Source: Escherichia coli (GTDB lineage: Bacteria; Pseudomonadota; Gammaproteobacteria; Enterobacterales; Enterobacteriaceae). From it: a stretch of 64,000 nt of DNA. How positions within the stretch are numbered: position 1 is the stretch's first letter; every line of letters begins with the position of its first letter. The translations under genes and the position numbers were made by a program. Shown piece after piece: positions 8,912-59,444 of this stretch. The stretch is from assembly GCF_051903065.1 (NCBI RefSeq), contig NZ_CP178438.1; one strand, 5' to 3'. A model generated the notes under the pieces. That model was not told the DNA's origin. It saw nothing but the letters and a program-made list of their open reading frames with translations, and ran no database searches.

Positions 8912-9787
8912 ATGGCAGATTTAGACGATATTAAAGATGGTAAAGATTTTCGTACCGATCAACCGCAAAAAAATATCCCTTTTACCCTGAAAGGTTGCGG
9001 TGCGCTGGATTGGGGAATGCAGTCACGCTTATCGCGGATATTTAATCCGAAAACGGGTAAAACCGTGATGCTGGCTTTTGACCATGGTTATTTTCAGGGA
9101 CCGACTACCGGACTTGAACGCATTGATATAAATATCGCCCCGCTGTTTGAACATGCCGATGTATTAATGTGTACGCGCGGCATTTTGCGCAGCGTAGTTC
9201 CCCCGGCGACCAATAAGCCGGTGGTACTGCGGGCGTCAGGTGCGAACTCTATCCTGGCGGAATTAAGCAATGAAGCCGTGGCGTTATCGATGGATGACGC
9301 CGTGCGCCTGAACAGTTGCGCGGTGGCGGCGCAGGTTTATATCGGCAGCGAATATGAACATCAGTCGATCAAAAATATTATTCAGCTGGTCGATGCCGGA
9401 ATGAAAGTGGGAATGCCGACCATGGCCGTGACTGGCGTGGGCAAAGATATGGTGCGCGATCAGCGTTATTTCTCGCTCGCGACTCGAATCGCCGCTGAAA
9501 TGGGGGCGCAAATTATCAAAACCTATTATGTCGAAAAAGGTTTTGAACGGATTGTTGCCGGATGTCCGGTACCCATTGTTATTGCTGGCGGTAAAAAATT
9601 ACCGGAGCGCGAGGCGCTGGAAATGTGCTGGCAGGCTATCGATCAGGGCGCTTCTGGTGTGGATATGGGGCGTAATATTTTCCAGTCTGACCATCCGGTG
9701 GCGATGATGAAAGCCGTACAGGCGGTGGTACACCATAACGAAACGGCTGATCGGGCATATGAACTCTATCTGAGTGAAAAACAGTAA
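8912..9787 (+). CDS. lsrF: 3-hydroxy-5-phosphonooxypentane-2,4-dione thiolase (aldolase-like)
   Basis: 291-aa ORF; operon position after lsrB. Confidence 0.85.
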
Positions 9788-9809
9788 CTGCGGATTAAGG
9801 AGAAGAAAC

Positions 9810-10100
9810 ATGCACGTCACACTGGTTGAAATTAACGTTCATGAAGACAAGGTTGACGAGTTTATCGAAGTTTTTCGCCAGAACCACCTGGGCTCGGTAC
9901 AGGAAGAAGGCAATTTGCGCTTCGATGTCTTACAGGACCCGGAAGTGAATTCGCGCTTTTATATCTACGAAGCCTATAAAGATGAAGACGCAGTGGCGTT
10001 CCATAAAACCACGCCCCACTACAAAACCTGTGTCGCGAAACTGGAATCTTTAATGACCGGGCCGCGTAAAAAACGTCTGTTCAATGGGTTGATGCCGTGA
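9810..10100 (+). CDS. lsrG: Phospho-AI-2 isomerase (ABM monooxygenase-like fold)
   Basis: Start placed at [14 protein letters not shown] giving 96 aa; the 108-aa ORF from 9774 probably over-extends the N-terminus. Confidence 0.85.
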
Positions 10101-10585
10101 GGCGAATTTATCCGGTGCGCCGTAAAACCCCGTCCTTCAGGGCGGGGATATAAGGCGCGGTTTTCCACCTGACCAGGTGTTTGCTGTTGTTCAATGTATT
10201 GGCGGATGACGGATATTGGCGCACCTCCGCAGCTACTGGCAAAATAGCCAGGACTCCACAAAACGCCTTTGTAGTAATACCTGACTGCAATATCTGGTCG
10301 ATCTCGTCGCAGTAACCTACCTGATACGCTTTTGAGGCTGTTTACCAGACTGGATATCGCCAGTTTGGGAGGATAGTTAATTAACAAATGGACGTGATCT
10401 GGTTCGCCATCCATTTCAACCAGTTCAGCTTCAAAATCAGCACATACATTTGAAAAGTAAGTGCGTAGTTTTTCTGTCGCGTCATGGTCAAAAATCTGGC
10501 GTCGGTATCTGGTGACAAAGACCATGTGAACATGCTTCAGGAAAACACAATGCCTTCCACGCCGGATATCTGTTTCTTTTTTCAC
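10019..10585 (-). CDS. tnpA: IS200/IS605-family Y1 (HuH) transposase TnpA; ORF is C-terminally extended past the likely element end
   Basis: Resembles IS200 TnpA including the HVHLL motif (HuH); 188 aa versus about 150 typical, with the last ~30 codons running over the lsrG 3' end. Confidence 0.75.
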
Positions 10586-11880
10586 AGACCAAAATATAAT
10601 TTGACCTGTGAAACGACTACAGGCATTTAAATTCCAGTTAAGACCCGGTGGTCAACAGGAGCGTGAAATGAGGCGCTTCGCAGGCGCATGTCGTTTCGTT
10701 TTCAATCGTGCTCTGGCACGTCAGAATGAGAATCATGAGGCCGGTAATAAATACATCCCTTACGGGAAAATGGCTTCCTGGCTGGTTGAGTGGAAAAATG
10801 CCACTGAAACGCAATGGCTTAAAGATGCCCCGTCACAGCCATTGCAACAGTCACTGAAAGACCTTGAGTGGGCTTACAAAAACTTCTTCCAGAAGCGGGC
10901 TGCTTTTCCCCGATTCAAAAAGCGGGGACAGAATGATGCATTCCGCTACCCGCAGGGCGTTAAGCTCGATCAGGAAAACAGCCGTATTTTTCTGCCGAAA
11001 CTGGGCTGGATGCGCTACCGGAATAGCCGTCAGGTCACGGGTGTTGTGAAAAATGTCACGGTCAGCCAGTCCTGCGGTAAGTGGCACATCAGTATTCAGA
11101 CAGAAAGTGAAGTATCAACTCCGGTTCACCCTTCAGCATCAATGATCGGGCTGGATGCTGGCGTGGCTAAACTCGCCACGCTGTCAGATGGCACAGTCTT
11201 TGACCCTGTAAACAGTTTTCAGAAAAACCAGAAGAAGCTGGCGAGACTTCAGCGACAGTTCAGCCGCAAGGTCAAATTCAGCAACAACTGGCAGAAGCAG
11301 AAACGCAAAATACAGCGACTGCATTCCCGTATCGCAAATATCCGCAGGGACTACCTTCACAAAGTCACAACGACCGTCAGCAAAAACCACGCAATGATAG
11401 TCATTGAGGATTTGAAGGTCAGCAACATGTCAAAGTCAGCAGCGGGTACGGTCAGCCAGCCGGGGCGCAATGTCCGGGCAAAATCAGGTTTAAACCGTTC
11501 GATACTGGATCAGGGCTGGTATGAAATGCGTCGCCAGCTTGAGTACAAGCAGCTCTGGTGTGGCGGTCAGGTGCTTGCTGTTCCGCCAGCGTACACAAGC
11601 CAGCGTTGCGCGTGCTGTGGTCATACAGCGAAAGAAAATCGCGTGTCACAAAGTAAATTCAGATGCCAGGTATGTGGATATACAGCGAACGCCGATGTAA
11701 ACGGCGCTCGTAACATTTTAGCGGCGGGGCACGCCGTTCTTGCCTGTGGAGGGATGGTGCAGTCAGGCCGCCCGTTGAAGCAGGAACCCACCGAAATGAT
11801 TCAGGCGACAGCCTGAACGTAGCAGGATCCTCGTCATTCAGGGCGTGGAGGATGTCAACAGTTTTATCTACAATTGGGGT
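10101..11880. mobile_element. IS200/IS605-family insertion element (divergent tnpA and tnpB); boundaries approximate
   Basis: Y1/HuH TnpA and TnpB ORFs back to back; a similar 17-mer CGTCnTTCAGGGCGnGG occurs in direct orientation at 10131-10147 and 11832-11848, which I interpret as subterminal end structures. Confidence 0.7.
10608..11816 (+). CDS. tnpB: TnpB (IS605 OrfB family, RuvC-like RNA-guided nuclease)
   Basis: 402-aa ORF with RuvC-like motifs ([26 protein letters not shown]) and a CxxC...CxxC zinc finger near the C-terminus; no internal stops. Confidence 0.85.
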
Positions 11881-11903
11881 AACGCGCTGACGGGAGTAAA
11901 AAA

Positions 11904-12662
11904 ATGTCTGACTGGAACCCCTCTTTATATCTGCACTTTGCCGCTAAACGATCGCGTCCGGCGGTGGAGCTGCTTGCCAGAGTGCCGCTGGAGAATGTCG
12001 AATATGTTGCCGATCTTGGCTGTGGCCCAGGTAACAGCACCGCCCTTCTACAACAACGTTGGCCTGCTGCCAGGATAACGGGCATCGACTCATCTCCGGC
12101 GATGGTTGCCGAAGCACGCAGTGCTTTGCCGGACTGCCAGTTTGTGGAAGCAGATATCCGCAATTGGCAACCGGAACAGACACTCGATCTGATTTTTGCT
12201 AATGCCTCACTGCAATGGCTGCCCGACCACTACGAATTGTTTCCTCATCTGGTTTCGTTACTTAATCCGCAGGGCGTGCTGGCAGTACAGATGCCAGATA
12301 ACTGGCTGGAGCCGACCCATGTGCTCATGCGCGAAGTTGCCTGGGAACAAAACTACCCGGATCGCGGGCGTGAGCCGCTGGCAGGCGTTCATGCTTACTA
12401 CGATATTTTGAGCGAAGCCGGATGTAAGGTCGATATCTGGCGAACCACTTACTATCATCAGATGCCGTCGCACCAGGCGATTATCGATTGGGTGACCGCC
12501 ACTGGATTACGTCCGTGGTTACAGGATCTGACCGAGAGCGAACAGCAGCATTTTCTTACGCGCTACCATCAGATGTTGGAAGAGCAGTATCCACTGCAAG
12601 AGAACGGACAGATACTGCTGGCATTTCCGCGTCTGTTTATTGTTGCCCGGCGTACGGAGTAA
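11904..12662 (+). CDS. tam: trans-aconitate 2-methyltransferase
   Basis: 252-aa ORF with SAM-binding motif ([11 protein letters not shown]); K-12 gene order. Confidence 0.85.
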
Positions 12663-27702: not shown

Positions 27703-27798
27703 ATGCTGGGTAATATGAATGTTTTTATGGCAGTACTGGGAATAATTTTATTTTCTGGTTTTCTGGCAGCGTATTTCAGCCACAAATGGGATGACTAA
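27703..27798 (+). CDS. mgtS: Small membrane protein MgtS (31 aa)
   Basis: ATG...TAA encodes MLGNMNVFMAVLGIILFSGFLAAYFSHKWDD with an upstream GGAGG RBS; below the ORF-track size cutoff, read directly from the DNA. Confidence 0.85.
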   Translation: MLGNMNVFMAVLGIILFSGFLAAYFSHKWDD

Positions 27799-27825
27799 TG
27801 AACGGAGATAATCCCTCACCTAACC

Positions 27826-27864
27826 GGCCCCTTGTTACAGTTGTGTACAAGGGGCCTGATTTTT
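27826..27864 (+). terminator. Rho-independent terminator of mgtS
   Basis: GGCCCCTTGT...ACAAGGGGCC stem followed by a T-run. Confidence 0.65.
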
Positions 27865-27869
27865 ATGAC

Positions 27870-27968
27870 GGCGAAAAAAAACCGCCAGTAAACCGGCGGT
27901 GAATGCTTGCATGGATAGATTTGTGTTTTGCTTTTACGCTAACAGGCATTTTCCTGCACTGATAACGG
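27870..27968 (-). ncRNA. mgrR: PhoP-activated small RNA MgrR (ends approximate)
   Basis: Minus-strand terminator (stem CCGCCGGTTTACTGGCGG plus U-run) about 100 nt downstream of a PhoP-box-like promoter; lies between mgtS and dgcZ as in K-12. Confidence 0.6.
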
Positions 27969-28005
27969 ATCGTTGACACAGTAGCATCAGTTTTCTCAAT
28001 GAATG

Positions 28006-39367: not shown

Positions 39368-39943
39368 CTACGGCAGTGCTGGCCATTCAATATCCTGTGC
39401 AGTTGACGTATCAACACGGTTCAGCAATACCCGATACTTTTTCCATGCTTCCAGCAACGAGATTTCTTCCTCCGTTGCAATTTCCAGATCTGCAGCATCC
39501 TGAAGCGGCGCAATATGCTCACTGGCTACCTGCATCAGGTTGTTTTTTGTTTCTTCCGCCTCCCGGATCCGGAACAGTTTTTCTGCTTCCGTATCCTTCA
39601 CCCAGGCTGTGCCGTTCCACTTCTGAAACTCCCCTTCCGGCGATAACCAGGTAACATTTTCCGGTAACGGACCGAGTTCAGAAATAAATAACGCGTCGCC
39701 GGAAGCCACGTCATAGACGGTTTTTCCCCGATGATCTTCAACGAGATGCCACGATGCCTCATCACTGTTGAAAACAGCCACGAAGCCTGCCGGAATATCT
39801 GGCGGTGCAATATCGGTACTGTTTGCTGGCAGACCTGTATGAGGCGGAATATATGCGTCACCTTCACCAATAAATTCATTAGTTCCGGCCAGCAGATTAT
39901 AAATTTTTATGGTCTGTGGTTGTTCACTCATTCTGAATGCCAT
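39368..39943 (-). CDS. tfaQ: Tail fibre assembly protein
   Basis: 191-aa ORF of the lambda Tfa family, immediately downstream of stf. Confidence 0.85.
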
Positions 39944-48734: not shown

Positions 48735-49080
48735 GATGGTGTTAACTCCAGTCATCGCTGGCACTACCACTGCTGGTTCAGAGTTAAAAAAAACTATGAT
48801 TTTTTTCATGATGTTACCGTAGTATGTGAGTATCCATCGAATAGACACCAAGCAAAAAAGCTCCCGAAGGAGCCTTCATTTTCACTTTTTTAAATCCAAC
48901 GACAGACGGCTGGCATTTAAGTATTGTGAAATATTATCAAATGTAATCATCATTGATTTACAAAAGATACATTTTGCCCCGAAAGGATTCATGTCAGAAA
49001 CATCAAAAGATGATGTTCTATACTGGGAACCATGACAACACGGGCATCTAAAGTGAATATGGTTTGTAATATTGTCTACC

Positions 49081-49293
49081 TCAAAGCGCCACTACATGAA
49101 CAGCGGCAGGACCTTTAGGTCCGTTCTCAATACCAAATTCAACTTCCTGATTCTCAGTTAATGTTTTGAAATCGTTGCTCTGAATTGCTGAGAAATGGAC
49201 AAACACATCTTTGCTGCCATCTTTCGGCGTGATGAAACCAAAACCTTTTTCAGGGTTAAACCATTTCACTAAACCAGTCATTTTGTTAGACAT
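49081..49293 (-). CDS. cspI: Cold shock protein CspI
   Basis: 70-aa [44 protein letters not shown]... Confidence 0.9.
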
Positions 49294-49655
49294 AATTATT
49301 ACCTTTTGAAGAAATTAGCCCTTGGGCAGAATGGTCCGAAAAAAAATATCAGAGAGAAAAACCAACAAGGAAATCTCAAGAGGTACAAATAATAAAATTA
49401 TAACAATGACTGCTTCAGATAAATTTGTAACAAACCAGAACACCATTAACGCATGATTAACCACCCATAGCAAGGATTACTTTTGTAAAGAAAAACACAG
49501 CAATGAAAGAATAGCTTTATTTATTAATAAAACGTGTCATTCTGATTAAGACCTTTTATCTTACCCTTAAGATTTCAGGAATTTTGGCTCATGGAAGAGT
49601 CCTTTTTATTTAAATTTTACATTCCGCGATGTAAATGTTCCGATTTAATATTACC

Positions 49656-51600: not shown

Positions 51601-51963
51601 TTGATTTTATTAGTAACAAGTATTTTTTATATTTTAATAATATATTTAAAGCAGATAATAAAAAACCCGCCTGAGCGGGTTTGAGATTGTGGTGCTTTTT
51701 GTGGGAGTCATCCACTTACGCACTTTGTTTTGCGATGCCAGCAGTTAGCTTCTGCTGTGAAACTATTCATGCAGCAAACCTGCACTTCACCACAATGGTT
51801 AGCATACTTTTCCTGATTAAGATTTTGCCAAATATGCTGGCCATTGTTTCATGTATTGGACCTCCTTACTTTTTATTAAAGAGATCCAATATTCACTACT
51901 CTGTCCGTATCTCTACTCAGGCATCAGCCTTCTTCGTTATCGTATACAGACGAGCGATGAATT

Positions 51964-52179
51964 TTAATCAGTAATGATGACATTTACTGCTGCAGGACCT
52001 TTAGCACCACTCTCTATAGAGAAGGTAACCTTTTGACCTTCAAATAAGGTTCGATAATTATCATTCTGAATCGCAGAAAAATGCACAAACACATCTTTAC
52101 TACCATCAACAGGAGAAATAAAGCCGAAACCTTTATCAGCGTTAAACCATTTTACTAAACCAGTCATTTTATTTGACAT
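51964..52179 (-). CDS. cspB: Cold shock protein CspB
   Basis: 71-aa [44 protein letters not shown]... Confidence 0.9.
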
Positions 52180-52489
52180 TCTACATTCCTTAACTTGAGC
52201 CTTTCGGCATAAATGGTTTGCATAACAGAAACGACTTCGTACTTAATTGGAGAGACTCAAAGAAGGAATAAGTGAATAACACCTGAAATGAGAACTGCTT
52301 TAGTAAACTACTTCGTATATCGTCTGTTCTTCAAACCGACGCAGTCATTAACTCATAGTTGAACATATGAAGCAATGTTTATTTTAGACATCCAGCCACC
52401 TTCAATCCTATCAAAAAAGTAGTTTTCTCCAGGAACGTGTGTATGGTGCACCAGGTTATCAGTATTAAGGAGTTTTTCTGTCCCCTAAA

Positions 52490-59110: not shown

Positions 59111-59444
59111 GAAAAATCCCCCAGAGAATTGTCTGGGGACATTTTAGAATGGTTCAAAGGGGACATTACAGCTTGGTGTTAACAATAGCCTGCTTCTCCG
59201 TGCCTTTCGGCACGTAAGAGGCTAACCTACATGTGTCTAGCATGAAATTGGCCTCAGATTAATGTTAAGCGTCTTGCAGGACGCGTAATGTTAACTGGGG
59301 CTTTTCTCTATCTGCCGTTGGTGTCCATGCCCGAGGCAGATAGCCTCAAGCACCCGCAGTCATTCTACTTAACTAAGATTTCCCCGCAAACCGTTTTTGT
59401 CCAGCACAGTAAATATCCAACTAAACCAATGGAGTTCGCTGTAT

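Follow-up and report, generated by a model that had tools for sequence, protein, structure and literature searches.

A resident IS609 copy between lsrG and tam of Escherichia coli carries an intact tnpB gene beside a probably crippled transposition system

The lsrF-lsrG and tam-yneE region of Escherichia coli lies at about 9.8-12.7 kb of the 64-kb stretch of DNA that was analysed (hereafter, the window), and between the lsrG stop codon (10098-10100) and the tam ATG (11904) there are two divergent ORFs, tnpA on the minus strand and tnpB on the plus strand. The question raised by this locus is what kind of DNA separates the two host genes, and which of its parts still look functional. The original prediction placed an IS200/IS605-family element at 10101-11880, and this was borne out: BLAST identified the element as IS609, and both TnpA and TnpB gave profile matches. 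In an alignment of 1748 columns, 43 distinguish the element from the O157 copy, which is annotated as IS609 (97.5% identity), and 41 distinguish it from that of K-12. An isoform is defined by a nucleotide identity of about 95% or more to a named IS, the reference here being the RefSeq-annotated IS609 copies, and the window element lies within that range. The O157 tnpA is annotated as "IS609 family transposase", and the RefSeq labels for the copies are "IS200/IS605-like element IS609 family transposase" and "RNA-guided endonuclease InsQ/TnpB". Judged by nucleotide identity, the element between lsrG and tam is a copy of the catalogued IS609, and the insertion itself is already known, being annotated at the same site in RefSeq genomes. 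The first reading had overlooked the name of the element, together with the loss of the tnpA start and stop codons and the weakening of the right-end hairpin.

Where the element starts and stops can be read from an empty site and from copies elsewhere. In a genome without the element (L002), the lsrG-tam spacer is 56 nt, and the site is filled in 30 of 5426 genomes, in agreement with the expectation of a strain-specific insertion into an otherwise short spacer. The insertion point in L002 falls between GAATTTAT and CAGTTTTATC (also given as GAATTTAT followed by CAGTTTT or, in a longer form, as ...GCGAATTTAT followed by CAGTTTTATCTACAATTGGGG...), the empty lsrG-tam joint being GAATTTATCAGTTTT, and a comparison of the filled and empty sites showed that a target duplication is absent. 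Five insertion sites were then aligned: lsrG-tam, ydcL-ydcO (K-12), a TetR gene (O157), a DUF3251 gene, and gltX-yfeD. At all five independent sites TTTAT is followed by CCGGTGCG, and the base 5' of TTTAT is variable; the left end of every copy is CCGGTGCGCCGTAAAACCCC, directly 3' of TTTAT, and the right end of every copy is GGAGGATGTCAA, after which the sequences diverge. The window element terminates in ...GGATGTCAA, its last four nucleotides being the right cleavage site, TCAA (11855-11858, plus strand), and the same GTCAA end followed by divergence was found in 12 of 12 E. coli copies and in 10 of the 11 sequences of a diverged set. Because the empty site and the termini shared at independent sites define the same limits, the ends were placed at 10112 and 11858, giving an IS609 copy of 1747 bp on the top (plus) strand; the predicted location was right, with ends misplaced by about 11 and 22 nt. 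The target pentanucleotide TTTAT (10107-10111, plus strand) abuts the left end and is the left TnpA cleavage site; it lies 6-10 nt after the lsrG stop codon, and the insertion is 45 nt upstream of tam. From the five insertion sites and the mechanism of the family (PMC8612924), we infer that TTTAT is also the TnpB TAM.

A 12-nt right flank apparently common to the lsrG-tam and gltX-yfeD copies was considered and rejected as a gapped chance resemblance (CAGTTTTATCTA versus GCTGATTCATCTA); the idea arose from BLAST matches that reached query position 2071, and it would have meant a co-mobilised flank or a shared guide. No second IS609 end, and no second copy besides the element itself, was found in the 64-kb window.

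Instead of terminal inverted repeats, the element has subterminal hairpins in direct orientation on one strand, which is the arrangement of its family. A 17-mer, CGTCNTTCAGGGCGNGG, had been noticed near both ends in direct orientation; the 64 kb contain it at just two places, 10131-10147 and 11832-11848, each time on the plus strand, against 0.00 occurrences expected from shuffled sequences, and these two copies turn out to be the cores of the left-end (LE) and right-end (RE) hairpins. The LE hairpin (10128-10147, plus strand), CCCCGTCC-TTCA-GGGCGGGG, has an 8-bp stem with one T.G pair and a TTCA loop. As single-stranded DNA, positions 10107-10165 fold with -14.1 kcal/mol (z = -2.6; 3 of 200 shuffles were as stable), and 11 of the 12 copies have the LE hairpin unchanged. 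The RE hairpin (11828-11849, plus strand), TCCTCGTCA-TTCA-GGGCGTGGA, holds the second 17-mer and is degraded, with two extra stem mismatches (A>T and C>A) and the deletion of one G from the adjacent 5' G-run (11825-11826). Whereas the K-12 RE hairpin, TCCACGTCC-TTCA-GGGCGTGGA, has a 9-bp stem with one T.G pair and folds with -7.7 kcal/mol (z = -2.9), that of the window reaches only -2.9 kcal/mol (z = -0.3), a stability that shuffled sequence also attains. The cleavage site of IS608 is selected with the help of the four bases that lie 5' of each hairpin foot (PMC3201880). The missing G sits at the equivalent position, so by analogy the 1-nt deletion could impair RE processing. All three RE variants are common to most lsrG-tam copies and are partly present in a yfeD copy.

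A divergent Y1 tnpA is present, as predicted, but it is not intact. Its canonical start codon has changed from ATG to ATT (10598-10600) and its canonical stop from TAG to CAG (10169-10171), leaving a defective frame at 10019-10585 (minus strand) whose longest ORF, of 188 aa, begins at GTG 10585, five codons downstream of the lost ATG and in frame with it. This ORF overruns the normal end by 45 codons, running through the LE and antisense into the 3' end of lsrG, and the C-terminal extension is appended directly after the helix that bears the catalytic Tyr. The canonical TnpA of 143 aa, which ends in QQQTPG before its stop codon, is encoded by the O157 copy and by one yfeD copy. Despite the lost ATG and stop, the window protein is recognisably a Y1 HUH transposase of the IS200/IS605 family: it scores 141.4 bits against NF033573 transpos_IS200 (cutoff 55), and it retains the HUH motif DHVHLL and the catalytic-Tyr motif RQYIEQQ, aligning to the solved TnpAs 2f4f, 2ec2, and 2a6m. 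With these motifs and the in-frame GTG in place, tnpA may not be dead. Across the 12 copies, only two have the canonical tnpA ORF, six have lost the stop, and four contain internal stops or frameshifts; the ATG to ATT change is found in just 2/12.

The transposition half of the window copy is probably crippled, given that both the start and the stop of tnpA have been lost and that the RE hairpin is mismatched and carries a 1-nt deletion. The alternative would be a fully autonomous, active IS609 in which TnpA is made from GTG 10585 or from ATT, the 45-aa extension is tolerated, and the variant RE is recognised. The stop-loss allele is indeed common (six of 12 copies), no internal stop interrupts the window gene, and all TnpA catalytic motifs are kept; moreover, the variant RE (A>T, C>A) is also present at gltX-yfeD in strain SRCC 1675, and its occurrence at this second site implies that the variant either moved or was copied. 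We nevertheless consider autonomy unlikely. The canonical start is gone, the extension directly follows the catalytic-Tyr helix, and the RE folds no better than a shuffled sequence; in addition, PGAP calls tnpA a pseudogene in a genome with 100% identity (NZ_AP045789.1), and the orthologous copies L008 and L009 exhibit further tnpA decay in the form of frameshifts and stops. The K-12 copy, which shares the stop loss and also has an internal stop, underwent 0 transpositions in mutation-accumulation lines (PMC5009759).

The adjoining gene is in a different condition. The insQ-type tnpB (10608-11816, plus strand, GTG start) is an intact RNA-guided nuclease gene, its product being 402 aa without an internal stop, as had been read from the ORF. 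It matches NCBIfam NF040570 guided_TnpB ("RNA-guided endonuclease TnpB family") with 377.9 bits against a cutoff of 100, and its Pfam domains, PF12323 HTH_OrfB_IS605 (residues 1-48), PF01385 OrfB_IS605 (162-277), and the PF07282 Cas12f1-like TNB zinc ribbon (304-370), make up the TnpB architecture of HTH/WED-REC, split RuvC, and zinc-ribbon TNB. The protein was compared with PDB sequences using phmmer, and equivalent residues were counted along the printed alignment. Residues 3-376 align to ISDra2 TnpB (8BF8, 8EXA, and 8H1J; E = 6e-56), and the possibility of substitutions at the RuvC catalytic positions was not realised: D183 (motif IGLDAGV), E267 (VIEDL), and D363 (NADVNG) correspond to D191, E278, and D361 of ISDra2, leaving the D-E-D set intact. 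The CxxC...CxxC zinc finger is likewise kept, at C334, C337, C353, and C356. The traits that define IS200/IS605 elements and TnpB nucleases were all present where examined, apart from activity, which is predicted, and the omega-RNA, which is putative.

Of the 12 copies compared, 11 encode the 402-aa TnpB; the exception is a frameshifted copy at lsrG-tam. Among the 11 intact copies, the mean pS is 0.0405 and the mean pN 0.0108, a ratio of about 0.27, and the variable sites number 17, 16, and 37 at the first, second, and third codon positions, respectively. The pN/pS value and the third-position excess indicate purifying selection on the TnpB protein. The window TnpB differs by 15-17 substitutions from the K-12 and O157 copies, and its derived substitutions include R88W, Y160H, and R318C, at positions that are variable in ISDra2 too. 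In a scan for promoters and terminators nothing exceeded the expectation from shuffled sequence, and no sigma-70-like plus-strand promoter was seen upstream of tnpB.

These last two observations are what one would predict if the element were an inert fossil, with tnpB open merely by chance or recent descent, unexpressed or inactive, and with the omega-RNA absent: a plus-strand promoter upstream is missing from the scan, and several of the derived TnpB substitutions are non-conservative. Likewise weakened is the RE hairpin, which would also provide the putative RNA with its 3' stem. Such a reading is doubtful when set against the selection on tnpB, its full length in 11 of 12 copies while the adjoining tnpA decays, and the intact catalytic and zinc residues. 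An IS609 TnpB was also purifiable for assays (PMC12781874), and the 3' end of the element has a structure, described below, that is conserved with compensatory changes.

An omega-RNA would be expected at the 3' end of tnpB, and a search with Rfam covariance models over positions 9700-12300 yielded no match at the gathering score. Relaxing the threshold to E <= 1 over the same interval gave only two matches, both on the plus strand at the tnpB 3' end: HgcC (RF00062) at 11749-11871, with 23.6 bits and E = 0.011 (gathering score 50), and RAGATH-18 (RF03064) at 11743-11786, with 28.1 bits and E = 0.017 (gathering score 44.9). HgcC has been tied to tnpB 3' ends and has an RE-like UUCA tetraloop, as do sotRNAs (PMC4615843), and RAGATH-18 is the guide-RNA (reRNA) scaffold of IS607 TnpBs (PMC11061315). 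Both resemble the window in overlapping tnpB 3' ends and in having a UUCA-tetraloop stem followed by GGAGGA(U/G)GUCA (PMC4615843; PMC11061315), although the matches here are below threshold, and the models of the two families derive from archaeal or IS607-type elements.

Sequences related to the final 300 nt of the element were found on Salmonella, Klebsiella, Serratia, and E. coli plasmids, at 78-95% identity. An alignment of 11 sequences (78-99% identity, from few clades) contains GGAGGA(T/C)G(T/C)CAA in every member, with divergence immediately after it. The RNAalifold consensus for these 11 sequences has 55 pairs, with 94.1% of the cells paired. Double-sided changes affect 10 pairs, a count reached by 0 of 500 column shuffles (5.3 +/- 1.2) and higher than that of partner-slid controls (at most 5), the structure having been derived from the same alignment. 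Folded as a single RNA sequence, 11690-11858 does not exceed its shuffles in stability (z = -0.45). Across the alignment, the structure of the 3' ~200 nt is conserved, with compensatory changes, and stops where the element does. Its last helix is also the ssDNA hairpin of TnpA, and is not specific to RNA.

By analogy with characterised elements, and from this conservation, the presence of an omega-RNA at the 3' end of tnpB is a well-supported prediction. Its putative scaffold is at 11667-11858 (plus strand), overlapping both the end of tnpB and the RE; the prediction of a 3' guide RNA thus stands in respect of the covarying structure that ends at the boundary, but not in its placement at 11817-11903. 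Under the family mechanism (PMC8612924; 10.1101/2023.03.14.532601), the guide would start at 11859, and its likely template is 11859-11878 (plus strand), CAGTTTTATCTACAATTGGG, host DNA directly 3' of the RE and 26-45 nt upstream of the tam ATG. The sequence that precedes this guide is TTTAT in the empty site and GTCAA in the window. The 64-kb window holds no other target for the guide, or for TAM plus guide, within 3 mismatches. In their main text, the papers found on IS609 together with TnpB report neither a TAM nor an omega-RNA for IS609.

In the general mechanism of the family, TnpA cuts the top strand out in circular form and rejoins the donor DNA; TnpB with its omega-RNA then recognises TAM plus guide at the new junction and cleaves it, and the element is regained through homologous repair (PMC8612924; 10.1101/2023.03.14.532601; PMC5027513). 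Applied to the window copy, the 3' part of the tnpB transcript would be processed into an omega-RNA with a scaffold of about 11667-11858 and a guide from 11859 onwards. TnpB with this omega-RNA would be directed to TTTAT plus CAGTTTTATCTACAA..., the predicted target being TTTAT-CAGTTTTATCTACAAT. Such a combination of TTTAT and guide sequence would exist only where the lsrG-tam site is empty and has been resealed; cleavage there would lead recombinational repair from the sister chromosome to restore the element. The occupied site would be protected because GTCAA stands in place of the TAM. Movement of this copy would require intact TnpA from another copy, or may never occur.

The distribution of the insertion was determined by megablast against 5426 complete E. 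coli genomes, using a query of 2401 nt that includes both flanks. IS609 is present at other sites in nearly all of these genomes, and the whole query, i.e., the lsrG-tam insertion, in 30 of the 5426 (0.55%) at 97.4-100% identity; two human isolates from Ecuador are 100% identical. Relative to five other lsrG-tam carriers, the window differs by 0.6-2.2% in the element, 0.2-1.7% in the lsrG flank, and 0.2-6.0% in the tam flank. As the flanks have diverged as much as the element, or more, the insertion is by this measure old rather than a recent hop, and it travels with a recombining region. The RE of one lsrG-tam carrier (RMDEC465) is of the K-12 type, suggesting gene conversion among copies.

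An old insertion that persists in diverse hosts, with a conserved tnpB and a decaying tnpA, could also be imagined as a domesticated nuclease-RNA module, kept at lsrG-tam for a host function after tnpA decayed; since the element parts tam from lsrG and tnpB lies directly upstream of tam in the same orientation, the function might be control of tam/lsr expression or, alternatively, that of a locus guard, with cells that lose the insertion being killed or repaired. We regard domestication, and equally either of these example functions, as highly improbable. Retention of tnpB with loss of tnpA also characterises all other IS609 sites and the plasmid copies, so that nothing ties it to lsrG-tam in particular; the RuvC residues have been kept, in contrast to exapted, nuclease-dead TnpB relatives; the insertion occurs in only 0.55% of genomes; and the guide has no other match in the window. 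Were selection holding the module there as a fixed chromosomal function and no longer as part of a mobile element, the copy would represent incipient domestication of a TnpB within E. coli.

The best explanation of the whole, to which we assign a probability of about 0.9 from the sequence comparisons, is a resident, old, and largely immobile IS609 with a nuclease module that still looks functional. Its closest counterparts are the IS609 copies of O157:H7 and K-12 (insQ/ydcM, at ydcL-ydcO; IS605 group), which are 1748 bp in length compared with 1747 bp in the window. They have the same ends, TTTAT target, and divergent tnpA and tnpB, with 7 nt between the canonical start codons, and are 97.5-97.7% identical. 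The window copy is at a different chromosomal site, lsrG-tam, and its RE has the deleted G and the two hairpin mismatches; it shares the tnpA stop loss with the K-12 copy but not with that of O157. ISDra2 of Deinococcus radiodurans is more distant. The D/E/D residues and the zinc finger of TnpB are conserved between the two, but over the 374 aligned residues the proteins are clearly diverged; ISDra2 likewise has a pentanucleotide target/TAM at its LE and takes its guide from the RE flank (PMC8612924), but the target is TTGAT rather than TTTAT, and its tnpA is co-directional rather than divergent. The Y1 HUH TnpA is similar to that of IS608 from Helicobacter pylori (2A6M, 2A6O, and 2VJU; E = 2e-18), an element that also has imperfect subterminal hairpins, an RE ending in TCAA, and insertion 3' of a T-rich motif without duplication (PMC3201880). 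The two differ in target (TTTAT, not TTAC) and in gene order and orientation, and the tnpA of the window is damaged.

Beyond annotation the significance of this copy is small, as IS609 and its TnpB are catalogued and the insertion was already annotated. With the ends, the TTTAT target and putative TAM, and a predicted guide now defined, a test for the omega-RNA or for cleavage can be designed. The 12 copies provide a clean, small example of a conserved tnpB beside a decaying tnpA. For the host, the insertion cuts tam off from lsrG, and it may alter tam expression in ~0.5% of strains.

The two sides of the IS609 insertion differ in how well they are conserved. Six strains were compared, and over 600 nt on the lsrG side (positions 9512-10111, comprising the lsrF 3' end and lsrG) they differed from the window by just 0.2-1.7%, whereas over the first 600 nt on the tam side (11859-12458) the difference was 3.7-6.2% for five strains and 0.2% for the sixth, GPT24-02. 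This suggests unusually high polymorphism or recombination at tam. Another TTTAT lies at 11863-11867, 5 nt past the IS609 right end and within the predicted guide template; it adjoins the element and is a potential extra IS609 target or TAM-like motif. At the opposite boundary, loss of the tnpA stop codon lets the reading frame continue out of IS609 and across the final 82 nt of lsrG (10019-10100), on the minus strand and antisense to lsrG; the resulting read-through tail of 45 amino acids is coded partly from the IS609 left end and host DNA.

Outside IS609, the window contains several structured-RNA matches at the Rfam gathering score, all on the minus strand: the STnc560 Hfq-binding sRNA (27792-28005), IS009 RNA (39402-39600), two cspA-type thermoregulator leaders (49054-49439 and 51917-52340), and the sok antitoxin RNA (59184-59355). 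The two leaders and the sok match together suggest that the downstream region resembles a cryptic prophage in which cold-shock paralogues occur alongside a hok/sok module.

Relatives of IS609 were also found on plasmids. Three, from Klebsiella variicola and E. coli (L015, L018, and L021), carry an IS609-like tnpB, each of exactly 402 amino acids, and in one case the carrier is a phage-plasmid that also has portal and head genes; tnpA is not annotated beside tnpB in any of the three in the PLSDB gene tables, which are themselves incomplete. The IncY plasmid pEcoUTI1e (L020) has a lone IS609 right-end-like segment at ~1087-1297, directly downstream of repA, which terminates in GGAGGATGCCAA and is without tnpB. 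Most of the predicted base pairs are retained, some of them through compensatory changes, and the segment looks like a solo right end or an omega-RNA-like remnant.

The lsrG-tam copies of IS609 in other strains are not uniform. In the pigeon strains PT62 and LP5-1 (genome matches H53/H54), the element is broken by an IS3-family element, and the match is in two pieces spanning 3.66 kb. The copy in strain RMDEC465 has a K-12-type right-end hairpin, whereas the delta-G/A>T/C>A variant is common to the remaining lsrG-tam copies; its guide flank, the host DNA directly 3' of the right end, differs too (CACTAGGGG versus CAATTGGGG). Taken together, this hairpin and flank suggest mosaicism or gene conversion among IS609 copies.
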